A stretch of 30,173 bases of DNA from an uncultured bacterium (GCA_903958115.1 CAJBRS010000101.1:1-30173), one strand, 5' to 3'; positions 18,699-29,934 are shown, counted from the first letter of the stretch. Numbers and translations are program-made. The notes: generated by a model not told the origin, from the sequence alone.

Positions 18699-19538
18699 AT
18701 GAAAAATTATTTCGAAGATAAAAAAGGGGTGATGTTTGCAAGTTCAGTTGCTATTGTCTTGCTTGCAGTATTTCTCTTTACACAAATTATTACTAATCTT
18801 AAGGCGTTGGACACTATTGGTGAGCAACCTAACCCAACAAATATTATTACAGTATCAGGAACATCTGATGTTTCTGCTCCAGCAGACACTGCAGAATTTA
18901 GTTTTACTATAACTGGTGATGGCAAAACCGTTGCAGACGCACAAGCAAAAGCAAATCCTGTTTCTAAAAAAGCTCTTGATTATTTAAAAGCTCAAGGGAT
19001 TGCTGATGCCGATATTAATAACGGGGGGTACAACGCATATCCGCAGTATGGTACGGAGCAGGTAGCATGTCCTCAGGTTCAGACGATGATGGCTCCGGCT
19101 AATGGCGCAGCAGCTTCTCCGGTTTATTGTCCACCATCACAGCAGGTGATCACTGGATATGAAGTTAGTCAGACAATTTCTGTTAAGGTTCATGACACAA
19201 GTAAGGCGGGCACATTGCTTGGCGGTGTTGGGGCTCTAGGCGTTTCAAATATTTCTGGTTTGAGTTTTACTATTGATAACGAAGATTCTCTGAAGAATCA
19301 GGCGCGTAGTCAAGCTATCGACAAGGCTAGAGCTCAAGCAGAAGAGCTAGCAAAAGAATTACATGTTCACTTGGGTAAAATTACTAGTTTCTCTGAGCAG
19401 GGTAATTATCCTGGTCCGATTATGTATGCAAAGGCTATGATGTCTGGTGGTGCGGCTGATTCCGCATCTGCTCCAAGTATTCCAACAGGTTCAAATAAGA
19501 TTACTTCGACCGTTTCAATTAGCTACGAAATTCGTTAG
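18699..19538 (+). CDS. SIMPL (DUF541)-domain protein
   Basis: N-terminal TM helix; ITVSGTSDVSAPADTAEFSF; GYEVSQTISV; ARSQAIDKARAQAEELA; C-terminal VSISYEIR. Confidence 0.88.
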   Translation: MKNYFEDKKGVMFASSVAIVLLAVFLFTQIITNLKALDTIGEQPNPTNIITVSGTSDVSAPADTAEFSFTITGDGKTVADAQAKANPVSKKALDYLKAQGIADADINNGGYNAYPQYGTEQVACPQVQTMMAPANGAAASPVYCPPSQQVITGYEVSQTISVKVHDTSKAGTLLGGVGALGVSNISGLSFTIDNEDSLKNQARSQAIDKARAQAEELAKELHVHLGKITSFSEQGNYPGPIMYAKAMMSGGAADSASAPSIPTGSNKITSTVSISYEIR

Positions 19539-19542
19539 CCAG

Positions 19543-19646
19543 ACGAAACATCACACACAAAACACCCTTGTTTCAGAGACCGCTCCGGGCCGCACGCCCC
19601 GCGTCCTAGTCTCTTCAACAAGGGTGTTTTGTGTGTGATGTTTCGT
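19543..19646 (-). repeat. Long hairpin element E1 (core in reverse orientation)
   Basis: Perfect 30-bp IR (19543-19572/19617-19646), 2-nt mismatch, 6-bp inner stem, 28-nt core whose reverse complement is TAGGACGCGGGGCGTGCGGCCCGGAGCG. Confidence 0.93.
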
Positions 19647-19683
19647 TTGACTCACTCTTTTTTGTTATTGGAAAACTGGGCGT

Positions 19684-19772
19684 CCCGCACTCAGAATAAT
19701 ACCCCTAGAGAGACTAAGACTTGGCCAAGCGGCCCGGAGCGGTCTCTCTGGGGGTATTATTCTGAGTGCGGG
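19684..19772 (+). repeat. Long hairpin element E2
   Basis: 31-bp IR (19684-19714/19742-19772) with one T-G wobble around the 27-nt core TAAGACTTGGCCAAGCGGCCCGGAGCG. Confidence 0.95.
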
Positions 19773-19780
19773 GCAATCGG

Positions 19781-19808
19781 TTGACAATAATAGAAAAAAG
19801 AGTATTAT
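19781..19808 (+). promoter_or_regulatory. Sigma70 promoter for secE-nusG-rplK: TTGACA-N16-TATTAT
   Basis: TTGACA 19781-19786 (8 nt after E2); TATTAT 19803-19808. Confidence 0.7.
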
Positions 19809-19872
19809 ATGAGGTATTAACACCCCCGACAGGGGTTTTTTAATAGGGAAACTAGATTTCCCAACAAAATAT

Positions 19873-20049
19873 ATGGGACTAACAGAATATATAAAAGAGA
19901 CAAAAGTTGAGATGAAACATGTTACATGGCCAAGTCGCAGACAGGCGATTGCTTTTACTGTGGTGGTTATTCTTATTTCGATCGGTGTTGCTTTATATCT
20001 AGGATTCTTTGATTTTCTGTTTACTCTAGGACTTGGGAAAATTATCTAA
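19873..20049 (+). CDS. secE: Preprotein translocase subunit SecE (58 aa; absent from ORF track)
   Basis: Hand translation MGLTEYIKETKVEMKHVTWPSRRQAIAFTVVVILISIGVALYLGFFDFLFTLGLGKII: conserved E(M/L)KxVxWP motif plus one TM helix; lies directly upstream of nusG. Confidence 0.95.
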   Translation: MGLTEYIKETKVEMKHVTWPSRRQAIAFTVVVILISIGVALYLGFFDFLFTLGLGKII

Positions 20050-20076
20050 ATTTAAACGGCTAAAAATAAAATAAAC

Positions 20077-20622
20077 ATGGCAAAACAACAATTAGATGCG
20101 GAAAGAAATTGGTACGCAATTCATACCTATGCAGGTTATGAAAATGCTGTAGCAAGAAATTTAAAACAGCGTATTGAATCTCTTGGCATGGAAGATAAGA
20201 TTTTTGCAGTACTTGTCCCAACAGAAAAGAAAATTAAAATTAAGGCTGGAAAGCGTGCCGAAGAGGAAGAAAAAATTTATCCAGGTTACATCTTGGTGGA
20301 TATGATTGTGACTGATGATTCTTGGTATGTTGTTAGAAACACTCCTCGAGTGACCGGTTTCGTTGGGTCAGGAGTTTATCCTGTACCTCTAGATAAGGGG
20401 GAAGTTGAGTCTCTATTTAAGAGAATGGATTCTGCTACAGTTAAACACAATATTGATCTTGATATTGAAGACGCGGTCATCATTGTAGATGGTCCATTTA
20501 AGGATCTTGAAGGAAAAGTTGATGAAGTCGACACAGAGAGAGGAAAGGTTCGAGTCCTTGTATCGATGTTCGGTCGCGAGACACCAGTAGAGCTCGATTT
20601 CTTGCAAGTAAAGAAGATTTAA
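20077..20622 (+). CDS. nusG: Transcription factor NusG
   Basis: WYAIHTYAGYE, IYPGYILV, VRNTPRVTGFVG, KOW domain GPFKDLEG, MFGRETPVELDF. Confidence 0.98.
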   Translation: MAKQQLDAERNWYAIHTYAGYENAVARNLKQRIESLGMEDKIFAVLVPTEKKIKIKAGKRAEEEEKIYPGYILVDMIVTDDSWYVVRNTPRVTGFVGSGVYPVPLDKGEVESLFKRMDSATVKHNIDLDIEDAVIIVDGPFKDLEGKVDEVDTERGKVRVLVSMFGRETPVELDFLQVKKI

Positions 20623-20687
20623 GCTACTATTTCGAAGCTTCTAGCTTGAGGAGAGCTTTTATTTCCTCGAAACTAATATATACAAAA

Positions 20688-21110
20688 ATGGCAAAGAAAA
20701 TTACAAAAATTCTAAAAATGCAGATTCCCGGAGGAAAGGCTGTCCCTGGACAAGCTCTTGGACCTGTACTTGGAGGCGCCGGCATCAACATCGGCGAATT
20801 CGTAAAGCGTTTTAATGATGAGACAAAGGATCGTGTTGGTGAAATTGTTCCTACAATTGTTCAGATCCATGACGATCGAAGCTATACATTAGTCTACAAG
20901 ATTGAACCCGCTTCAAACTTAATCATGAAGGCTATTGGTATTGAGAAGGGTTCAGGATCTAATCTTACAAAGAAAGCTGGTTCTATTACCAAAGCTCAGG
21001 TCAAAGCTATCGCTGAAAAGAAAATGGCTGATCTAAATGCTGGAAGTATTGAAGCTGCTATGAAAATTATCGAAGGAAGCTGTCGTTCAATGGGGATTGA
21101 TGTAAAGTAG
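20688..21110 (+). CDS. rplK: 50S ribosomal protein L11
   Basis: Start moved to ATG 20688 (MAKKITK). GGKAVPGQALGPVLGGAGINIGEFVKRFN, IAEKKMADLNA, IIEGSCRSMGI. Confidence 0.97.
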   Translation: MAKKITKILKMQIPGGKAVPGQALGPVLGGAGINIGEFVKRFNDETKDRVGEIVPTIVQIHDDRSYTLVYKIEPASNLIMKAIGIEKGSGSNLTKKAGSITKAQVKAIAEKKMADLNAGSIEAAMKIIEGSCRSMGIDVK

Positions 21111-21120
21111 GTTGTAACGT

Positions 21121-21211
21121 AAGCACAAACAAAATAACACCCCTAAAGAGAGTAAGGCTTGGCCTAGCGGCCACGAGCGCTCTCTTTAGGGGTGTTATTT
21201 TGTTTGTGCTT
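21121..21211 (+). repeat. Long hairpin element E3
   Basis: Perfect 32-bp IR (21121-21152/21180-21211) around the 27-nt core TAAGGCTTGGCCTAGCGGCCACGAGCG; starts 10 nt after the rplK stop. Confidence 0.95.
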
Positions 21212-21253
21212 GCTTTATGTACCTATTTCACATAATGTTACGAAAAAAGGAGG
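21210..21253 (+). promoter_or_regulatory. Promoter-RBS module overlapping E3: TTGCTT-N17-TAATGT-TACGAAAAAAGGAGG
   Basis: TTGCTT 21210-21215, TAATGT 21233-21238, GGAGG 21249-21253; the same architecture follows E4. Confidence 0.65.
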
Positions 21254-21259
21254 TTGATT

Positions 21260-21868
21260 GTGAAAAAAAATATAGATTTACTACCACCCAAAACATACAT
21301 ACATGTCCTACCAGGAGGAAAGATGCCCAAGCGTCAGACCGCCGGTGCTATTGGATACGATGTTCATCTTCGGGCAATTGTTTCGCCGACAGAGATGAGC
21401 GAAGAAAATCCTGTTCTTCGCAAAACCATTTTTGGTTTTGATCGTATTCCTAGGAGAAATAGTGCTTTGGCTAAGAAAATTTTCAGCGTCAGAAGAAAGA
21501 AAGGGGAGGGACATGAGCTTGTCTATCGGATGGCTCCGCATGAGTCTGTTCTGGTCGGTATAGGTTTTGTTACCGCAATGCCTTTCCCGATGTTTTATTG
21601 GACTGCTCCGCGCAGTGGTCTCGCTTCTAAGTGGGGCATTACAGTTACAAACGCTCCTGGCACTGTCGATCCTGATTATCGGGGTGAGGCGGGCATTCTT
21701 GTTTATAATCGTAACAATCACACTTTTGATCTTAAACAAGATATGCGTATTGCCCAGATCATTTTTCAGTGGGCGCTCATCCCACAGCTAAAAAGAGTTC
21801 GTTCTTACAGTAAATTACCGCCTTCTATCAGAGGGATTGATGGATTTGGCTCGACTGGTTTGGAATAA
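21260..21868 (+). CDS. dut: Trimeric dUTPase, second copy, with ~48-aa insertion
   Basis: Motif I AIGYDV, II PRSGLA, III NAPGTVDPDYRGE, IV RIAQ, V RGIDGFGSTG; GTG start 6 nt after GGAGG. Confidence 0.9.
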   Translation: MKKNIDLLPPKTYIHVLPGGKMPKRQTAGAIGYDVHLRAIVSPTEMSEENPVLRKTIFGFDRIPRRNSALAKKIFSVRRKKGEGHELVYRMAPHESVLVGIGFVTAMPFPMFYWTAPRSGLASKWGITVTNAPGTVDPDYRGEAGILVYNRNNHTFDLKQDMRIAQIIFQWALIPQLKRVRSYSKLPPSIRGIDGFGSTGLE

Positions 21869-21881
21869 AAAAACGTTCCCA

Positions 21882-21912
21882 AAAAGCGGCTGTTCGAAGA
21901 ATAGCCGCTTTT
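21882..21912. terminator. Intrinsic terminator, symmetric A/T flanks, after dut2
   Basis: AAAAGCGGCTGTTC-GAA-GAATAGCCGCTTTT. Confidence 0.75.
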
Positions 21913-21939
21913 GACTATCTCACAAAAGAATGGTAGTGT
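21911..21939 (+). promoter_or_regulatory. Promoter TTGACT-N17-TAGTGT (extended TG) for the DHH gene
   Basis: TTGACT 21911-21916 overlaps the terminator T-tract; TG 21931-21932; TAGTGT 21934-21939; GGAGG SD follows. Confidence 0.6.
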
Positions 21940-21958
21940 TCGCTCGGAGGAAAAAACT

Positions 21959-23014
21959 ATGAAACCATCTGAATTGGCAGATACCTTTACAAAAGTCGTC
22001 GAGTCTTTAAAGCATATCGTTATCGTTGTTGCTCAAATAGACCCAGACGCTCTCGCCTCAGCCTTTGTGCTGAAAGAGATCATCAGTAAAATCTCAGCGA
22101 AGTCGACCATGACGGTTGTGGATATCGTCTTTGGGGGCCACATTGGCAATGCCCAAAATAGGACGATCATCAACCTTTTTGATCTCTCGAGGGCCATGAT
22201 TCCTTCAACGGAATACGATTTCTCAAAATGTGAAGCCGTGGCTCTCGTCGATTCTTCAAAAATGAAGGATGGTCGGGTGACCCTGCCAACAAATCTTTCG
22301 CCAGTCATCGTCATCGATCACCATCGTGATAGTGATTTGCCGACAGGAGGAGGTCAGTTTTACTGGATTGATGAAGTTGGTTCTTGTTCCACTATGCTTG
22401 TTGAGTTGTGGTTGGCGCTTGGCTTCGAAATTGAAAAATTGAACGAGGCTCTTCTTGTAATGCTGGCGCTTGGGGTCTTCACTGATACCCAAGCACTCAT
22501 CCAAGCTGGTGAACGGGATTTCCAGGTTTATCAAAGTATCTCCAAACGCATAGAGCCGAGACAGCTTCAGAAGTTTCTGAGTCCGGCACTTAATAGAGAT
22601 TACTTTGATCAACTGCAAATAGCTTTGCAAAATCGAGTTCAAAAAAATGGTTCTTTGGTGACCGGTCTTGGTACCATTGACCATGATGATGGCGATAATG
22701 TTGCCCTCATTGCCGACCTTCTTATACGAGAAAGCACGGTCTCAACAGTGATTGTGTGGGCGATTGTTGACAATGTCATACGTATCGCCGCTCGCAACGA
22801 TGACGTGTCTGAACCTCTTGAGGATTTTCTTCGGGAGAAATTCGGGCCTGATTCTGGTGCGAAGTTGACCAGCCATGGATTGGGGATTGGAGGGGCTCGG
22901 CTTGAACTGAATTCTGCTCCTTGGATGACCAAGGCGTTGAAGTATGGCGATTCACAGAAGAAGCTCGAAGACTTTATCGGGCAGCTTGTTCAGGATCTCG
23001 TCTTCAACGATTGA
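21959..23014 (+). CDS. DHH/DHHA1-family phosphoesterase (NrnA/GdpP-like)
   Basis: Start moved to ATG 21959, after GGAGG. DPDALASA, LVDS, IDHH, GVFTDT, and a DHHA1-like C-terminal domain ending GIGGA. Confidence 0.88.
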   Translation: MKPSELADTFTKVVESLKHIVIVVAQIDPDALASAFVLKEIISKISAKSTMTVVDIVFGGHIGNAQNRTIINLFDLSRAMIPSTEYDFSKCEAVALVDSSKMKDGRVTLPTNLSPVIVIDHHRDSDLPTGGGQFYWIDEVGSCSTMLVELWLALGFEIEKLNEALLVMLALGVFTDTQALIQAGERDFQVYQSISKRIEPRQLQKFLSPALNRDYFDQLQIALQNRVQKNGSLVTGLGTIDHDDGDNVALIADLLIRESTVSTVIVWAIVDNVIRIAARNDDVSEPLEDFLREKFGPDSGAKLTSHGLGIGGARLELNSAPWMTKALKYGDSQKKLEDFIGQLVQDLVFND

Positions 23015-23032
23015 TTTCTGGACTCTAATCAG

Positions 23033-23068
23033 AAAGCGCGTCTCCTCGGAGACGCGCTTTGTTTTTTT
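23033..23068. terminator. Intrinsic terminator between convergent DHH and folA
   Basis: AAAGCGCGTCTC-CTCG-GAGACGCGCTTT followed by a T-rich tract. Confidence 0.8.
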
Positions 23069-23561
23069 ATTTTAATACTTTGTATTCGAGAAGCAGTGTT
23101 CCACTTGGGGTTTTTTCTTCGGAAACCAATTCGAGTTTAAAATCGATATCCTGATTGAAGATCGTTAGACCCTTGCCAAATACAATAGGTTCGACAGTTA
23201 GATACAATTTTTCTATCAAGCCCGATTTCATAAACATTGTGTAGATACTTTGGCCGCCACAAATTGCTACTTCTTTGAAACCTCTTTCTTCAAGTTTTTT
23301 AAAAAGAATAGCTGGTTCGTCTGTAGTTGTTTCAGCTCCATCAAATGTCTCGTTTAGTGAGTACACAATATTGAGCCGGCCTGGGAGAGGATTTTTTAAT
23401 GTTTTGAATGTTGTCTGGCCCATTACCACGACACCAGCGCGTTTGGTTATTTCGACAAAGCGAGCCTTGTCTTCTTTGCTGGTCCAATAGGCTGCGTGAT
23501 TAGTATCTTTGGCAATAAATCCGTCTGTCGTCAAGGCTGAAATAATGAATGGTTTTATCAT
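23067..23561 (-). CDS. folA: Dihydrofolate reductase
   Basis: ISALTTDGFIA, SKEDKARF, VVVMGQTTF, LPGRLNIV, AICGGQSIY, LYLTV. Start placed at ATG 23561 (TATAAT 6 nt upstream); ATG 23567 is the alternative. Confidence 0.92.
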   Translation of the reverse strand: MIKPFIISALTTDGFIAKDTNHAAYWTSKEDKARFVEITKRAGVVVMGQTTFKTLKNPLPGRLNIVYSLNETFDGAETTTDEPAILFKKLEERGFKEVAICGGQSIYTMFMKSGLIEKLYLTVEPIVFGKGLTIFNQDIDFKLELVSEEKTPSGTLLLEYKVLK

Positions 23562-23624
23562 GCTCATATTATATCGTTTTATTGTTTTCTGTGGAAATAA
23601 AATTATGCTAAAATACCGATACAT

Positions 23625-24230
23625 ATGACCGAGGCCAATATAACAATAAATAAAGGAATTTTTGGTTTAAATGCCAACTTTAGCCATCGGTATATTTCTG
23701 ATTATAAGAAGCTCACCAAGCTCGTTGATCATTGTAAGGGATTGGGGTTGGAGGTTGTTTTGACTCAAGGGACCTATGATATGGTGCATATTGGTCATGC
23801 TAGGTATTTTGAAGAAGCAAAAAAACACGGTGACCTATTGATTGTCGGAGTAGATAGTGATGAAAAAGTTCGAGCGCGAAAAGGCCCGGAGCGTCCAGTG
23901 GTGCCACAAGATGAAAGACTTGAAATGGTGGCGCATCTTCGATCTGTTGACGTGGTTGTTTTAAAACAACACAAAGCTCCTAAGTGGAGTTTAATTAAGA
24001 CAGTAAGGCCTGATGTATTAATTGCCACGAAAGAAACTTACACGAAAGCTCAACTAAAAGAATTAGAAAAATATTGCAAGAAAATAATTGTGCTAGATCC
24101 AATGGCCACCACTTCCACGAGCGCCAAGATTCGACGACTTCAGATAAGTACAGCCAAAAGTCTTGGGAAGCAACTTACCCCTAAAATAATGTCGACGATT
24201 GAAGAGGTTCTAGAAAATTTGAAGAGATAG
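23625..24230 (+). CDS. Cytidylyltransferase-like (HIGH-motif, RfaE-II/TagD-like) protein
   Basis: GTYDMVHIGHARY, LIVGVDSD, KGPERP, DERLEMV, STSAKI. Confidence 0.88.
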   Translation: MTEANITINKGIFGLNANFSHRYISDYKKLTKLVDHCKGLGLEVVLTQGTYDMVHIGHARYFEEAKKHGDLLIVGVDSDEKVRARKGPERPVVPQDERLEMVAHLRSVDVVVLKQHKAPKWSLIKTVRPDVLIATKETYTKAQLKELEKYCKKIIVLDPMATTSTSAKIRRLQISTAKSLGKQLTPKIMSTIEEVLENLKR

Positions 24231-24240
24231 TCTAAAAAGT

Positions 24241-25080
24241 ATGGAAAAAGAAACAATCATTATTGCCCACATTCCTGTATTGCATCAGGGTTATAAAAAG
24301 TTATTCGAATCTCATCCTGAGGCAAAAGAGCTTTATATTCTTGGTCCAGAATTGGTGGGGGAATACCCTCATTTGGCAAAGGATATTCGCCAGCTTGATG
24401 CAGAATTGGTTAAGGAGGCTATCGAAAGTTGGAAGATTTTTGATGTTGTAGAAATTTTAGATAAGGAATTATTAGTAAAAATTGCTGATCTAAAACCACG
24501 AATTGTATTGCCAAATGAGGAGGTAACTAAAGGTCTTGTAGAAAAATATCTATCGAAGATCGAAGTGTTGTACAGCCCAATTTTTTTGCGATGGGACAAA
24601 CACAATACTGTCACAGAGACAGAAATAAATCCTGACAGAAAAATTTCCCGAGAAGAGTTTGATCGAAACATTATGGAAATGGCCGGCAAAGAGGGAGAGA
24701 AGAGTACTGATATCTGGCGAAGAATCGGATCAATTTTGGTAAAGGACGGAAATATTATTTGCTCGGCTCATAATATTGGAACGCCGACAGAGCAAACATC
24801 TATGTACGAAGGTGATCCAAGAAATAATTTTCATAAAGGGGTGCACCTTGAACTTTCAACTTTTCTTCATTCTGAGGCGGGGGTAGTGGCGGAGATGGCT
24901 CGTCGAGGAATTGCCGTAGAGGGAGCTGATATTTATGTAACGACATACCCATGTGCGCCGTGTGCGAAAATGATTGCTTATTCTGGCATCAAAAGAGTTT
25001 TTTATAAAAATGGATATGGGGTATTAGACAGCGAGAGAATCTTGAAAGAGAAAGGAGTGGAGATTATAAGGGTAGAGTAA
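24241..25080 (+). CDS. dCMP-deaminase-like protein with extra N-terminal domain
   Basis: Zn-deaminase motifs HSEAG and PCAPC in the C-terminal half; ~120-aa N-terminal domain beginning AHIPVLHQGY. Confidence 0.85.
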   Translation: MEKETIIIAHIPVLHQGYKKLFESHPEAKELYILGPELVGEYPHLAKDIRQLDAELVKEAIESWKIFDVVEILDKELLVKIADLKPRIVLPNEEVTKGLVEKYLSKIEVLYSPIFLRWDKHNTVTETEINPDRKISREEFDRNIMEMAGKEGEKSTDIWRRIGSILVKDGNIICSAHNIGTPTEQTSMYEGDPRNNFHKGVHLELSTFLHSEAGVVAEMARRGIAVEGADIYVTTYPCAPCAKMIAYSGIKRVFYKNGYGVLDSERILKEKGVEIIRVE

Positions 25081-25089
25081 GTATAAAGA

Positions 25090-25111
25090 GCCTGCCGAGA
25101 TGTCGGCAGGC
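25090..25111 (-). terminator. Intrinsic terminator of the minus-strand HIT2 gene
   Basis: GCCTGCCGA-GATG-TCGGCAGGC; the minus-strand tail reads TCTTTATA. Confidence 0.65.
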
Positions 25112-25124
25112 CCCGCTGTGTTTT

Positions 25125-25715
25125 TTAGCACGCTCCTTTTGGTGCCATCTTGTCTTCCACGAGGGAACGTTCTTCTTCAGAGAGTTCTTCGAAGGACATT
25201 CCTTGTCGCATTTTCTCAAAGACCTGCAGGATAGGTAGTTTTTCCACGAGGTTTTTCGACGACTTTGCAATTGTCACTGTGACCCGATCTCTGCCCGTTG
25301 GCACATGATAATTGAAGTGTAGGTGAGGCATGCTCTTGGCATTGCGAAGTGGATTGCCTGATCGTACCAGTAGAACGCCGCCGTCTATGGAGAATTCTCG
25401 ATTGATCCAACGTGTCGCTTCTGCAAGAAGAAACCATTCCTTGTAGTTTACCTCATCAATATTACCAAGGTGACGTTTTGATGGTATTACGAATTGGTAG
25501 TCTTGCCCTTCTTGTGCTGCGAGGTTGTTTTTCCAGACGCGCCAAGCATCGTTCTCATAAAGCGTCTTGTTTAATTCTGGGTCAATTTGGCAAAAGCCAC
25601 AGACGCCCTGGAGCAATGAATCCACCTTTTTACAGTAGTATGCATAGTTGCTGACATTGAATAGTTGCCAGATATCATCTGGCGATATTCCTGGTACCTG
25701 AAATTCAGGATACAT
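25125..25715 (-). CDS. Divergent HIT-superfamily protein (HIT2, HLHFN variant)
   Basis: CGFC Zn knuckle, FVIPSKRH, NAKSMPHLHFNYH; strong SD AAAAGGAGG upstream. Confidence 0.78.
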   Translation of the reverse strand: MYPEFQVPGISPDDIWQLFNVSNYAYYCKKVDSLLQGVCGFCQIDPELNKTLYENDAWRVWKNNLAAQEGQDYQFVIPSKRHLGNIDEVNYKEWFLLAEATRWINREFSIDGGVLLVRSGNPLRNAKSMPHLHFNYHVPTGRDRVTVTIAKSSKNLVEKLPILQVFEKMRQGMSFEELSEEERSLVEDKMAPKGAC

Positions 25716-25757
25716 AAGCTCTCCTCCTTTTTATTGTTTTACCGACGTTTCGTTCGT

Positions 25758-25786
25758 ATCCTAGTTCAGTAGGAGCTCCTAGTCAA
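25758..25786 (-). promoter_or_regulatory. Promoter TTGACT-N17-TAGGAT for HIT2
   Basis: Minus strand: TTGACT 25786-25781, 17-nt spacer containing the palindrome AGGAGCTCCT, TAGGAT 25763-25758. Confidence 0.55.
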
Positions 25787-26263
25787 TTATTTGTTTTTTC
25801 TATTTTTAGGGTCACCGATTTTGAACCGGATGGCTTCACCCTTTTGATTTTCTAGGTCTGGCTCGATGAGATGGGCGTGGAGATGTAAGACGCTGTTGCC
25901 GTATGTGCCATATTCTGGGTTTGAACCGAAGCGCATCAGGAAAGCTCCACCTGGCATATTATTTTCCTTGCTAACATATTGGAAAAGCTCAAAAAGCTCT
26001 TGAGATGCTTCTGGTAACAAGTCGTTTAAATGTTCGATATGCGTTTTATGAATCGCTAGAAAGTGATGTTTGGTGTTTTCGTACGGCCACTGATTAAAAG
26101 TTAATGTCCAGTATTTGCCATCTTTAATAATGGGTTTTTTGTGATATTTTTTAAGATTTTCGGGACAGAAAGGGCAAACGTTGTCCGCAACAATTTGTTC
26201 CAGAACTTTTTTTTGTTCTTCTTCACGAGCGCTATCTATAATTACAAAATCTTTATCAGCCAT
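25787..26263 (-). CDS. HIT-family nucleotide hydrolase (HIT1)
   Basis: Start moved to ATG 26263, 1 nt after the thyA stop. CPFC, NQWPY, canonical triad VLHLHAHLI. Confidence 0.88.
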   Translation of the reverse strand: MADKDFVIIDSAREEEQKKVLEQIVADNVCPFCPENLKKYHKKPIIKDGKYWTLTFNQWPYENTKHHFLAIHKTHIEHLNDLLPEASQELFELFQYVSKENNMPGGAFLMRFGSNPEYGTYGNSVLHLHAHLIEPDLENQKGEAIRFKIGDPKNRKNK

Positions 26264-26264
26264 A

Positions 26265-27176
26265 TTAGATTGCAACAGGAATGCCTTTAATTCCAGGATG
26301 AGGTTCGTAATCAGAGAGTGTGAAATCTTCTTTTCGAAAATCAAAAAGATTTTTCTTTTCTTTGTTCATTGTAACAGTGGGGAATCGTCGTGGTTCTCTG
26401 GCTAGCATTGTTTCCACTGCTGGGATTTGGTCTACATAAATGTGAGCATCAGAAATGGTGTGGACATATTCGTAAGGAATAGTATTTGTGGCGTGAGCAA
26501 CCATCATTAAAAGCGCTGCATACTGGACCATGTTAGAAGGAACGCCGACCGGCACATCACCAGATCGCTGAATCATGTGAAGGGTTAGTTTGTTGTCGAT
26601 TACTCGAAAGTGAACCCATCCGTGGCATGGAGCGACTACTACTTTTTGTTGCTTTCCTTTGCCTCGCCCAATGTATTGAGGAACCCAAGGACTAACAAAA
26701 TGCGTGCGAAGCTGGGGTTCTTCAATGATTTGTTCAACAATATGTCTGAATTGATTAAAGCTCGGTCCCTCGGAAGTAGGGAAATCATGAAAAACGGCGC
26801 CATAAGAGCCGGGACCTAAATCTCCAGGAGCAAGCCCACGCTTTGCGCATTTTTCTGGTGTACCCCAAAATTTCCACCAATGACAGCCAAAAGATTCTAG
26901 GCCTTCCACTGTGCGAACACCATTTATGAAAGCGCAAATTTCTCCAATCGCTTGTTGCCAAACGGTGACAGGCAAGTGGTCGGAAACTTTAGGATCCATG
27001 TTTCTTTCTGTGATGATAGGGAAACCATTATCCATTCGGAATCGCATTGATCCGGATCCCATCAGGGTAATAGCATCAGTGCCTTGTTGGCTAATAGTAC
27101 GGGTGCCTTCTTTTAGAATTTTTCGAAGGAGATCTTGATATTGAGTGTCTGGTGTGCGTTCTGAATAGGGTTTCAT
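26265..27176 (-). CDS. thyA: Thymidylate synthase
   Basis: QYQDLL, FPIITER, GDLGPGSYG, catalytic PCH, QRSGD, GVPSN (dUMP-specifying Asn), DAHIY, YEPHP. Confidence 0.93.
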   Translation of the reverse strand: MKPYSERTPDTQYQDLLRKILKEGTRTISQQGTDAITLMGSGSMRFRMDNGFPIITERNMDPKVSDHLPVTVWQQAIGEICAFINGVRTVEGLESFGCHWWKFWGTPEKCAKRGLAPGDLGPGSYGAVFHDFPTSEGPSFNQFRHIVEQIIEEPQLRTHFVSPWVPQYIGRGKGKQQKVVVAPCHGWVHFRVIDNKLTLHMIQRSGDVPVGVPSNMVQYAALLMMVAHATNTIPYEYVHTISDAHIYVDQIPAVETMLAREPRRFPTVTMNKEKKNLFDFRKEDFTLSDYEPHPGIKGIPVAI

Positions 27177-27252
27177 ATCGGTATATGATACTTGCTCGCA
27201 AGGCCTTTTTCAAATTGCTGGTTTCAGGTCTTTGTGTTACAGTTTTTAAATT

Positions 27253-27816
27253 ATGATTTTAATCGGACTTGTTGGAGAAAATGGTAGTGGAAAAGAAACT
27301 TTTGCAAATTTGCTTAAGGAAAAATTTGGTACAAATGCCGTCACTCATATTCACACCTCCGATCTCCTAAAGGAAACTTTAACAGCATGGTCTGTGCCTC
27401 TTACTCGTCGCAACCTACAAGATATGGCTATTATTATGGATCATGCTTACGGAAAGGGAACACTTAGTCGTGCCATTAAAGAGAGAATTACAAATGCCAA
27501 GACAGATTTTGTCATTTTGGATGGAGTGCGCTGGCAGTCGGATGTTGATCTAATAAGAAGTATTACTCCTAATAAGCTTGTCTATATTACCGCTTCGGTT
27601 GAGCACCGTTACGAAAGAATCAAAACAAGAAAAGAGAAAGTGGGTGAGGATCAGGCATCATTCGAACAATTTTTGAAGGAAGAGCAAATTGAGACAGAGC
27701 TAGAAATAAAAAACATCGGGAAAGGCGCTGATATCACAATAGTAAATGACGGTTCAATCGAGGATTTGCGTAGGGAGGTGGAAGCAAGCACAAACAAAAT
27801 CACTTGTATTTTGTAG
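27253..27816 (+). CDS. P-loop (d)NMP-kinase-like protein
   Basis: LIGLVGENGSGKET, SDLL, ILDGVR, YITASVEHRYER, IVNDGSIEDL. The last 11 codons lie in the E4 left arm. Confidence 0.8.
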   Translation: MILIGLVGENGSGKETFANLLKEKFGTNAVTHIHTSDLLKETLTAWSVPLTRRNLQDMAIIMDHAYGKGTLSRAIKERITNAKTDFVILDGVRWQSDVDLIRSITPNKLVYITASVEHRYERIKTRKEKVGEDQASFEQFLKEEQIETELEIKNIGKGADITIVNDGSIEDLRREVEASTNKITCIL

Positions 27817-27882
27817 ACTAAGACTTGGCCAAGCGGCCCGGAGCGGTCTACAAAATACAAGTGATTTTGTTTGTGCTTGCTT
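27782..27882 (+). repeat. Long hairpin element E4
   Basis: Perfect 37-bp IR (27782-27818/27846-27882) around a 27-nt core identical to that of E2. Confidence 0.95.
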
Positions 27883-27920
27883 TTCGCATTTCTTTCGCTT
27901 AGTGTTACGAAAAAAGGAGG
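27877..27920 (+). promoter_or_regulatory. Promoter-RBS module overlapping E4: TTGCTT-N17-TAGTGT-TACGAAAAAAGGAGG
   Basis: TTGCTT 27877-27882, TAGTGT 27900-27905, GGAGG 27916-27920. Confidence 0.65.
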
Positions 27921-27925
27921 TAAGT

Positions 27926-28240
27926 ATGACAACGACGTGGTTTGTCTCGTGCAATTCATCCACTAATGACAAAATCCGGCAAAATTTGCCAGAGGAAAAC
28001 ATTCAGCGGGGCATGACTTGTATTGATCTTCAAAAAAGACAGATCAAACTTGATTTGTGGGAATGCGATTTCAAGTTTGTTCAAGAGCTTCAGTCGAATA
28101 AGAAGAATTGGAAGCTATCGTTCCGAGTCTTTCGTCGCGTGGGCCCTTATGGACGTTCTATTCGCGAAGCACCGGCCTGGCTCTACGACGAGTCTGTGCC
28201 AGCTCCAAAGAAATCAAAAACCAAAGTTCCGAGAAAATAG
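27926..28240 (+). CDS. Small hypothetical protein (104 aa)
   Basis: Start moved to ATG 27926, 5 nt after GGAGG. MTTTWFVSCN...KKSKTKVPRK with a basic C-terminal tail; followed by a hairpin. Confidence 0.7.
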   Translation: MTTTWFVSCNSSTNDKIRQNLPEENIQRGMTCIDLQKRQIKLDLWECDFKFVQELQSNKKNWKLSFRVFRRVGPYGRSIREAPAWLYDESVPAPKKSKTKVPRK

Positions 28241-28260
28241 GACTTCTTGTTCTAAAACTA

Positions 28261-28294
28261 CGCCGCGACCACTTAAAAAGCAGGGGTCGCGGCG
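28261..28294 (+). terminator. GC-rich hairpin, probable terminator
   Basis: CGCCGCGACC-14 nt-GGTCGCGGCG followed by CTTCTATTATTT. Confidence 0.55.
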
Positions 28295-28322
28295 CTTCTA
28301 TTATTTGTGCTAAAATAAATTC

Positions 28323-29501
28323 ATGAAAGACAAACAAATTGAAAAGCTTATAAAAGCAGAAAAGGCCCGACAAAAGGGCGTTATTAATCTTATTGCTTCA
28401 GAAAATATTGTTTCAGCAGACGTTCTCAAAGCTCTTGGTTCAGAGCTAACAAATAAATATGCAGAAGGTTATCCTCATAAAAGATATTATGGAGGTCAGA
28501 CTTATACCGACAAGATCGAGGAGTTGGCAAAAGAGAGGGCATTAAAACTTTTTGGATTGAAGGCAGAAAAGTGGCATGTGAATGTTCAGCCACTTTCGGG
28601 ATCGCCAGCCAACTTTGCAGTCTACACTGCTCTAGTAAAACCAGGTGAAAAAATCATGGGAATGTCTCTTGATAATGGGGGGCATCTTACTCATGGTCAC
28701 AAAGCATCAGCTACAGGAAAATTTTGGGTGCAGGTACCTTACGGAGTGGATTCTAAAACAGAGATGCTTGATTATGCAGATTTAAAAAGGATTGCTGAGG
28801 TGGAGAGGCCTAAAATTATCGTCGCTGGTTTTACTGCGTACCCTCGCACAGTTGATTTTAAAAAATTCAGAGAGATTGCAAACGCTTGCGGAGCAATCTT
28901 GATGGTGGATATGTCCCACTTTGCAGGGTTGGTGGCGGGAAAAGCTTACGCGATGTCACCATTTGATTATGCTGATATTGTGACGACCACAGTGCACAAG
29001 ACATTACGAGGGCCACGAAGTGCTATGATTTTTGCGAAGAAAGATGAAAGAGGTTTTGATAAGTTAATTGATAAAGCAATTTTCCCAGGACTTCAGGGTG
29101 GGCCACATATGAATCAAATCGCTGCTGTTGCAGTAGCTCTGAAAGAGGCGGCTGCTCCAGCTTTTAAAAAATATGCTAAGCAGATTGTTAGGAACGCAGC
29201 CATTTTAGCAGTCGAGCTTCAGAAGTTGGGATGGAGAATTATTTCCAAGGGCACTGATACGCACTTGATCCTTGTTGATACTTGGATGGGGGGGAAAGGT
29301 ATCTCGGGTGCAGAAGCAAGTGAGCGTTTAGAAAAAGCGGGGATTATTGTGAATAAGAATACTATTCCAGGCGAGAGCCGTTCGGCCTTTGATCCATCTG
29401 GAATTCGTTTAGGCACAGCTTCAGAGACTACTCGAGGACGAAAAGAAAAGGATATGAAAAAGATTGCACAGAAAATTAATACAGCTTTAAGGAAGAAATA
29501 A
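28323..29501 (+). CDS. glyA: Serine hydroxymethyltransferase
   Basis: LIASEN, NKYAEGYP, GGHLTHG, VDMSHFAG, TTTVHKTLRGPR, FPGLQGGPH, SGIRLGT; TGcTAAAAT 6 nt upstream. Confidence 0.97.
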   Translation: MKDKQIEKLIKAEKARQKGVINLIASENIVSADVLKALGSELTNKYAEGYPHKRYYGGQTYTDKIEELAKERALKLFGLKAEKWHVNVQPLSGSPANFAVYTALVKPGEKIMGMSLDNGGHLTHGHKASATGKFWVQVPYGVDSKTEMLDYADLKRIAEVERPKIIVAGFTAYPRTVDFKKFREIANACGAILMVDMSHFAGLVAGKAYAMSPFDYADIVTTTVHKTLRGPRSAMIFAKKDERGFDKLIDKAIFPGLQGGPHMNQIAAVAVALKEAAAPAFKKYAKQIVRNAAILAVELQKLGWRIISKGTDTHLILVDTWMGGKGISGAEASERLEKAGIIVNKNTIPGESRSAFDPSGIRLGTASETTRGRKEKDMKKIAQKINTALRKK

Positions 29502-29508
29502 AAATTAG

Positions 29509-29934
29509 ATGATTAAGGTAAAAATAAAACGACTTAACGGAGAAGCAAAATTACCAAGCTATGCTCATCCAGGGGATGTTGGCCTGGATTTGTATTCGAT
29601 GGAGGATAGGATTATTGCTCCAATGGAACACGCTCGTTTTTTTAACGGTTTTGCTTTGGAGTTTCCGGAGGGATATGCGGCAATAGTGAAAGATAAGGGT
29701 AGTATTTCAAAAGCTGGTCTGCATACTATGGGGGGAGTTTTTGATGCTGGCTATAGGGGAGAATATAATGTGCATTTGGTTAATTTAAGCCAAGAACCTT
29801 ACACTGTTGAAAAAGGTGATAAGATTGCTCAGCTAGTCATTTTGCCGGTTGCGATTGCTGAATTAGAAGAGGTTGAAGAACTATCTGATTCGTCTCGTGG
29901 GGAAGGGCGCTTTGGTAGTACGGGGAAAAAATGA
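29509..29934 (+). CDS. dut: Trimeric dUTPase (backbone copy)
   Basis: GDVGLDL, GGVFDAGYRGE, KIAQ, RGEGRFGSTG; motif II is atypical (DKGS). Confidence 0.9.
   Translation: MIKVKIKRLNGEAKLPSYAHPGDVGLDLYSMEDRIIAPMEHARFFNGFALEFPEGYAAIVKDKGSISKAGLHTMGGVFDAGYRGEYNVHLVNLSQEPYTVEKGDKIAQLVILPVAIAELEEVEELSDSSRGEGRFGSTGKK

Follow-up and report, generated by a model that had tools for sequence, protein, structure and literature searches.

The stretch of DNA analysed here, referred to throughout as the window, is a 30,173-nt contig of an uncultured bacterium (GCA_903958115.1 CAJBRS010000101.1:1-30173; contig C101 of genome G000, a 724-kb assembly in 133 contigs with 40% G+C and 93% completeness), in which a SIMPL gene, secE-nusG, rplK and an AAA-kinase open reading frame (ORF) are accompanied by four long hairpins, E1 to E4. 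An inverted-repeat search of positions 19000-28500 returned exactly these four, with arms of 31-47 nt that are 89-100% complementary and spacers of 27-28 nt (Table 1). The first-pass annotation, made from the sequence without database searches, had described four hairpins with variable, self-matched arms around a conserved core; the hairpins are confirmed and the loop sequences read exactly as it gave them, and one correction concerns E1, whose arms exceed the length given there and pair less perfectly (44-47 bp, 4-5 mismatches). E1 begins at the stop codon of the SIMPL gene and stands head-to-head with E2, downstream of which lies secE-nusG, and E3 begins 4 nt past the rplK stop codon. ARAGORN and Rfam searches of the window returned no tRNA, tmRNA or known RNA.

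Table 1. Hairpins, leaders and neighbouring features of the window, numbered from its first nucleotide.
Feature	Position	Strand	Description
E1	19534-19655	- (loop)	47-nt arms 19534-19580 and 19609-19655, 89% complementary; loop 19581-19608, a 28-nt variant with apical helix GGGC-GTGCG-GCCC
E2	19684-19772 (19682-19774 counting wobble pairs)	+	Arms 31-33 nt; wobble-extended left arm 19682-19714, 27-nt loop 19715-19741, right arm 19742-19774; two T·G wobbles
E3	21115-21217	+	38-nt arms 21115-21152 and 21180-21217, 95% complementary; loop 21153-21179, subtype B
E4	27782-27882	+	Perfect 37-bp arms 27782-27818 and 27846-27882 (100% complementary); loop 27819-27845
Leader downstream of E3	21218-21262	+	45 nt, ends in ATAATGTTACGAAAAAAGGAGG
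Leader copy downstream of E4	27883-27926		Near-identical to 21218-21262, with ATAATGTTACGAAAAAAGGAGG
rplK followed by E3 and a dUTPase/dCTP-deaminase-like gene	20646-21868
AAA-kinase ORF	27253-27816		Last ~11 codons and stop inside the left arm of E4
ORF of ~105 aa	27927-28240		Between E4 and SHMT
Second dUTPase-like gene	29509-29934

The hairpins of the window belong to a dispersed family, as had been supposed. Motif search, fuzzy search and a covariance model together place 35-39 copies in the genome (39 by the covariance model, which scores E1 at 37.5 bits), and further copies occur in other lineages of the candidate phyla radiation (CPR). The 27-nt loop shared by all copies, TAAGAC-YY-[GGSC-NAGC-GSCC]-NN-GAGCG, is nearly invariant and is closed by an inner stem AGAGAC/GTCTCT; a second subtype, B, to which E3 belongs, reads TAAGGC...CACGAGCG and has the inner stem GAGAG/CTCTC. 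Beyond the loop, the copies have no more than 5-6 bp of stem in common. The stems extend for 29-48 bp (median 40.5) with 0-4 mismatches, and within the genome each arm matches its own partner alone, barring a few partial sharings between copies, although across copies the arms are diverged homologous versions of one another. The arrangement of a conserved centre between variable yet self-matched arms is thus supported, and the mosaic sharing reported for the window is real: the outer arm is common to E3 and E4, the inner arm to E2 and E3. The shared 13-mer GCGGCCNNGAGCG occurs four times in the window against 0.15 occurrences expected, and E1 to E4 fold as single strands with energies 12-16 standard deviations below those of shuffled sequence (z = -12.6 for E2). 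The family is real and is not a product of chance. No description of it was found in the literature, and Rfam 15 searched at gathering thresholds gave no match in the window or in 6 other loci, in keeping with the earlier statement that it could not be assigned to a named element.

Assembly artefact was considered and rejected, since the hairpins are traversed by independent assemblies of other samples, taken from NCBI, ENA and Logan (contigs as long as 150 kb); E3 is crossed by contigs from three other metagenome runs. Several contigs of the genome end inside an element, as a repeat would lead one to expect. Contigs C102 and C110 are adjacent according to a sister-strain contig, the assembler having split them within one element.

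The two strands of the element are not equivalent. At stem positions that are not Watson-Crick pairs, the loop-sense strand carries 65 G·T or T·G against 22 A·C or C·A (p = 4e-6), and this strand folds 2-9 kcal/mol better than the other. Because the excess of G·U-type mismatches lies on the sense strand, one strand folds, and the strand that carries the loop as written is the one whose folding is preserved. Within the loop, the 4-bp apical helix covaries at its third pair (CG in 26 rows, GC in 15), as had been hinted from the copies of the window. Position 15, in the NAGC tetraloop, co-varies with position 26 (G-C 163, A-T 6, G-T 3, A-C 2), and the double change arose on two backgrounds, one in CPR and one in Bifidobacterium hapali; the covariation suggests a possible pairing of loop and tail. 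In another genome a variant with C-G in place of U·G at 7-22 favours a nested helix of two pairs, which would exclude the loop-to-tail pair.

How the arms change can be followed in sister strains, whose contigs from other pond and lake metagenomes carry the window at ~98-99% identity. Orthologous loci were fetched via exact-protein look-ups; ~14 were checked for empty sites and 12 were scored, with flanks that are ~97-100% identical between strains. Across the 12 scored loci the arms differ at 13.5% of positions, the flanks at 2.7% and the loop at 6.1%; relative to the DNA around them, stems thus change at roughly five times the rate, and the two arms change in mirror image. The extent of change differs from locus to locus. 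E1 is identical save for one outer substitution, copy C54:4179 shows no or almost no change, and E3 differs by a 1-nt loop deletion and one arm substitution. Single substitutions mirrored in the opposite arm are present at C19:4900 and C54:6241, the latter with its apical loop helix swapped to the E1-type variant, and a mirrored 1-nt indel is present at C115:1540, where the flanks are 100% identical.

Larger replacements obey the same symmetry. The inner ~24 bp of both E2 arms are replaced in mirror image between flanks that are 99.3% and 96.7% identical, and the sister loop has GGGC/GCCC for GGCC/GGCC, a compensatory change in the loop helix. A mid-stem block is replaced in mirror image in E4, the outer part of the stem at C54:5067, and both inner and outer parts at C102:6746. 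The loop is flipped in 3 of the 12 scored loci, namely E4, C54:5067 and C19:3395, in the last of which the arms are kept. At C115:2244 the right arm of the sister departs from the complement of its left arm at ~12 of 40 positions, whereas the hairpin is perfect in the genome studied here. The replaced blocks resemble arms of other copies. The loop is able to invert, and copies trade both loop subtypes and stem blocks. The earlier suggestion that the second arm is templated from the first fits these comparisons, both in the mirrored substitutions and indels and in the imperfect sister hairpin that is perfect here, and the check for inversion of the core, which the same source had proposed, is positive between strains. 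The protein encoded by the AAA-kinase ORF has 187 aa here, 194 aa in the sister strain, where translation passes through the flipped loop, and, in a third lineage, 181 aa ending in a different tail; a hairpin arm encodes the C-terminus, which for this reason differs between the strains.

E3 and E4 share more than an outer arm. The leader ending in ATAATGTTACGAAAAAAGGAGG occurs at just two locations in the genome, behind E3 and behind E4, and the shared outer arm and shared leader together mark E3 and E4 as paralogous units that later had their centres replaced. We read the common outer arm and leader with different centres as probable turnover of paralogous units from the centre outwards. The leaders, together with the outer right arm, may form a promoter and ribosome-binding module, and at both places the hairpin and its promoter-like leader stand ahead of small genes; this is true of 2 of the 39 copies, and no flanking sequence is common to the whole family.

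All copies in this genome are intergenic, mostly a few bases past a stop codon. Elsewhere, 36 of the 120 copies in the loci retrieved, about a third, are embedded in long open frames of 360-1100 aa that continue through the element, and the host genes include queA, tgt, class I aminoacyl-tRNA synthetases and a membrane protein, entered in either orientation. The in-frame copy in queA of a Saccharibacteria genome encodes a 31-aa insert that consists of both arms and the loop and is lacking in six orthologues, so that the inserted unit is the whole hairpin. Orthologues carry the element at the same insertion site with opposite loop orientations (Tgt, L018 vs L035; membrane protein, L055 vs L089; also an aminoacyl-tRNA synthetase). 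Because the loop is translated in five of the six frames, its conservation is not a protein constraint, and it is kept in old, vertically inherited in-frame copies in either orientation. In Saccharibacteria tgt (L011, 2661-3857) a decayed copy is present where other genomes hold intact ones, next to an intact queA copy, which indicates that elements decay in place.

Among genomes the family is widespread but sporadic. An exact-pattern scan with one genome per species matched at least 118 contigs; carriers among the matches listed are Saccharibacteria, Paceibacterota, Kaiser-, Jorgensen-, Peregrini- and Peribacteria and four Bifidobacterium lineages, and in nearly all of the contigs among these matches the motif caps a long copy-specific hairpin, sometimes bulged. 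In Bifidobacterium hapali the 16 copies have stems of ~30 bp that are almost perfectly paired and resemble the host in G+C. The element was found in 2 of 400 genomes in a phylum sample and in 2-3 of 40-60 genomes in order samples, one of these carriers holding 7 diverged copies; in all, ~1% of the Patescibacteria genomes sampled carry it. The syntenic secE-nusG-rplK loci of related species, 835 kb of sequence, held no element, and the loop had no match in phage and plasmid collections. In B. hapali loci L154-L165 a semi-conserved CGTAACGTT stands ~25 nt 5' of the hairpin and CGCTGGAAC on its 3' side. Head-to-head (-)(+) doublets number four in B. hapali and two in the genome studied here (contigs C101 and C93), and no (+)(-) doublet was seen in either. 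At the L9-L27 intergenic region of a relative (L279 and L280), where the flanks are 78-89% identical to those here, a single hairpin with a 23-bp stem replaces the C93 doublet; its short loop, TCTAAGGAACG, reads like the 27-nt loop minus positions 5-22.

Taken together, these observations are best accommodated, with a probability that we put at about 0.5, by a structured palindromic repeat, selfish or domesticated, in which the loop is a recognition module and the stems co-evolve by self-templated correction and exchange between copies. The loop would be recognised by a trans-acting protein on the folded single strand, either DNA exposed in replication or RNA, and the interaction between protein and loop would keep the loop constant and would originally have spread the element. 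The stem would need only to pair, its pairing being kept by intrastrand template switching (quasi-palindrome correction); the same switching would invert the 27-nt spacer, and patchy conversion from other copies would be seeded by the ~39 bp of shared loop and inner stem. Under this view, terminator, guide-array and protein-coding roles would all fall away. Template switching at quasi-palindromes and inversion of spacers mediated by inverted repeats are mutational mechanisms of single loci in Escherichia coli genetics. They explain mirrored substitutions and indels, the passage from imperfect to perfect arms and the flipping of short spacers, but we know of no genome-wide repeat family, with its spacer conserved, for which they have been described as the normal, steady-state way of evolving.

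Several points weigh against this reading. No candidate enzyme was identified: a reverse transcriptase is present in the genome studied here and in the Saccharibacteria carrier but was not found in B. hapali, and TnpB is present in two of the three carriers and missing from the Saccharibacteria one. The element is present in both strains at every comparable locus, so that the comparison of filled and empty sites proposed earlier yields no empty site and no presence/absence polymorphism at strain level, and the flanks of ~30 copies contain neither a target-site duplication nor a conserved target motif; any ongoing transposition is accordingly hypothetical. Old copies that have kept their loop fit host-level function or continual conversion as well as they fit selfish persistence. 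Recombination with divergent lineages, rather than processes in situ, could explain part of the strain differences, the flanks near E4 being 91-95% identical between strains, and a replacement limited to the mid-stem, as in E4, needs two steps under the model.

The alternative of a host-serving structured RNA family, in which the transcribed hairpin binds a conserved protein or ligand through a possibly pseudoknotted loop while the stems drift under a constraint of pairing alone, is unlikely. Such an RNA could act as a stabiliser of mRNA 3' ends, an insulator, a processing site or a small RNA. The G·U bias pointing to the sense strand, the covariation within the loop with its possible loop-to-tail pair, and the conservation of the loop in old copies all favour such a family, as does the placement of copies in this genome between genes and mostly after stop codons, with divergent promoter gaps avoided; the 5' motif and head-to-head doublets of B. 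hapali could mark divergent promoters. An RNA of this kind is nevertheless hard to reconcile with an orientation relative to host and neighbour genes that is mixed and slightly antisense (51 opposite vs 32 same, p = 0.05), with the third of copies elsewhere that lie in frame in essential genes in both orientations, and with the rarity of a U-tract after the hairpin: on the sense strand a T-rich tail stands behind 2 of 28 copies and on the opposite strand behind 0 of 28, where the background is 5%, so that the elements are not canonical terminators. A cis-regulatory role, which the first-pass annotation had offered, is accordingly unlikely. Unlike a core cellular RNA, moreover, the family is absent from ~99% of related genomes and has no Rfam match, and selection for pairing alone leaves 40-bp stems with as few as 0-2 mismatches and mirrored indels within ~1% divergence unexplained.

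A doubtful alternative, somewhat less probable again, makes the invariant loop the handle of active machinery, whether a loop-specific nuclease, primase or polymerase or a self-cleaving RNA, that rebuilds the arms and swaps the centres. An enzyme would nick or prime in the loop, or an RNA would cleave itself at the UA step after the stem; snap-back synthesis would then use one arm as the template for rebuilding its partner, with jumps of template from copy to copy, and each event of such diversification or retro-copying would yield a new perfect stem. Perfect stems despite extreme divergence between copies are what this predicts, and it is also consistent with turnover from the centre outwards, in which inner arms and loop are replaced and outer arms kept (E2, and E3 compared with E4), with the half-converted copy at C115:2244 and with the swapping of loop subtypes. 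The reverse transcriptase of this genome (C93:3734-4822, 362 aa) is closest to group II intron reverse transcriptases/maturases, below the family cut-off, and its neighbours have no family match. Although a group-II-like enzyme also occurs in the Saccharibacteria carrier, its absence from the search of B. hapali with its 16 copies speaks against it as the agent, and the co-occurring reverse transcriptase that was earlier proposed as a thing to look for is not common to all three carriers. A permissive Rfam E-value scan returned generic long-hairpin miRNA models only (29 bits vs a threshold of 97) and no ribozyme. Several loci are unchanged between strains, and passive palindrome processes can explain most events.

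Transposition of single-stranded DNA in the manner of REPINs or IS200/IS605 elements, with a Y1 HUH enzyme recognising the folded loop on the lagging-strand template and cutting and pasting the hairpin, is improbable. The strand-specific fold and the behaviour of the whole hairpin as an insertion unit lacking target duplication agree with such a mechanism, as does the tracking of GC skew by the loop strand in other genomes, where 73 of 103 copies are on the C-rich strand (73 vs 30). In the genome studied here, however, no such bias is seen (21 vs 15), which speaks against an orientation set by replication in it. The HUH/Y1 enzyme suggested in the first-pass annotation (RAYT or IS200/IS605 TnpA) was not found either: a search for Y1_Tnp (PF01797) gave no match in this genome, in the Saccharibacteria carrier (G061) or in B. 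hapali (G062), while six control genomes match, and the strains show no filled/empty polymorphism. Small palindromic repeats such as REP, REPIN, MITE (miniature inverted-repeat transposable element) and RPE are defined by conserved ends. REP and REPIN sequences are short non-coding hairpin repeats mobilised by RAYT (Bertels and Rainey 2011, PMC3116915). The present family resembles them in having tens of copies, mainly behind genes, and in the implied folding of a single strand, but its layout is the reverse: REPINs keep the terminal REP palindromes and vary in the middle, whereas here the middle is conserved and the arms are copy-specific. It differs from them also in that no RAYT/Y1 gene was found in the three carriers, in having in-frame copies within genes and in its spread across phyla.

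Other simple identities were examined and rejected. A MITE is contradicted by the lack of shared termini, of direct repeats flanking ~30 copies and of any parent insertion sequence seen, and an intrinsic terminator by the missing U-tract and mixed orientation. Insertion of the loop into pre-existing terminators is unlikely, given stems of 29-48 bp that are found within coding sequence too and are not followed by U-tracts. Copying of the arms from the target site is rejected since both queA arms are extra relative to the six orthologues and the arms match nothing else in the genome. A composite transposon bounded by (-)(+) hairpin pairs is not indicated, the pair on C102 enclosing an ordinary DUF4430 protein.

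Further known systems share individual traits with the family. Copies of the Rickettsia palindromic elements (RPEs) are alike over their whole length and confined to one genus. The likeness to RPEs and to the organellar hairpin elements of sponges (RHE; PMC2800124) lies in palindromic inserts of ~100 nt that are tolerated in frame, and in several reading frames, in housekeeping proteins. Unlike RPEs, the present copies share only 27 nt and 5-6 bp, their stems vary to an extreme degree, and carriers come from both CPR and Actinobacteria. In integron attC sites the base of the hairpin is conserved (R''/R' boxes RYYYAAC / GTTRRRY), together with extrahelical bases, and the apex varies. As in attC, a long imperfect hairpin is kept in structure rather than sequence, folds strand-specifically and is unique at each site; unlike attC, the apex is conserved, the base is variable and there is no cassette array, the copies being dispersed with no conserved base motif (intI was not searched for). 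As in invertons, a segment between inverted repeats is found in both orientations, among strains and among genera (tgt, membrane protein); an inverton switch also carries a promoter and is turned by a dedicated invertase, and a 27-nt spacer leaves no room for a promoter.

A guide or memory system with the stems as spacers, like CRISPR or TIGR arrays, is very improbable: variable stems unique to each copy, a loop with the size and shape of Cas6-type repeats and the occurrence of TIGR-Tas in CPR (PMC12045711) recall one, but the arms are homologous diverged versions across copies that match nothing else in the genome, and the loop matches nothing in phage or plasmid collections. TIGR units are tandem, stand beside a Nop-domain gene and hold two variable spacers, set between box C/D motifs, in the loop (PMC12045711); the present family is like them in its CPR occurrence and in variable palindromic stems around a functional loop, and unlike them in that its copies are dispersed, not arrayed, and its loop invariant, and a Tas gene was not searched for.

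The neighbourhood of the window hairpins has features of its own. After rplK come E3 and the dUTPase/dCTP-deaminase-like gene, not rplA, and a second dUTPase-like gene lies further along the window. The ~105-aa ORF between E4 and SHMT has no Pfam match and is missing in the third lineage, where the gap between kinase and SHMT is 128 nt and still holds an element; it looks like a cassette-like gain or loss beside the hairpin.

The family inverts the conserved-ends rule of small palindromic repeats, and it offers a natural, genome-wide view of how long palindromes survive: arms change in concert, centres flip and pieces are exchanged, at about five times the background rate. The consequences extend to proteins, since in-frame copies add inserts of 30 aa to QueA, Tgt and tRNA synthetases. 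That ultra-small CPR bacteria and Bifidobacterium carry the same 27-nt module suggests that it has moved horizontally between epibionts and hosts among the Actinobacteria. With the type strain of B. hapali in culture, the folding strand, binding of the loop and cutting of the loop are directly testable. Should active machinery acting on the loop prove to be responsible, the hairpins would be self-renewing elements and would constitute a new class of mobile or diversifying DNA, identified by its loop rather than its ends and shared between CPR epibionts and Actinobacteria.

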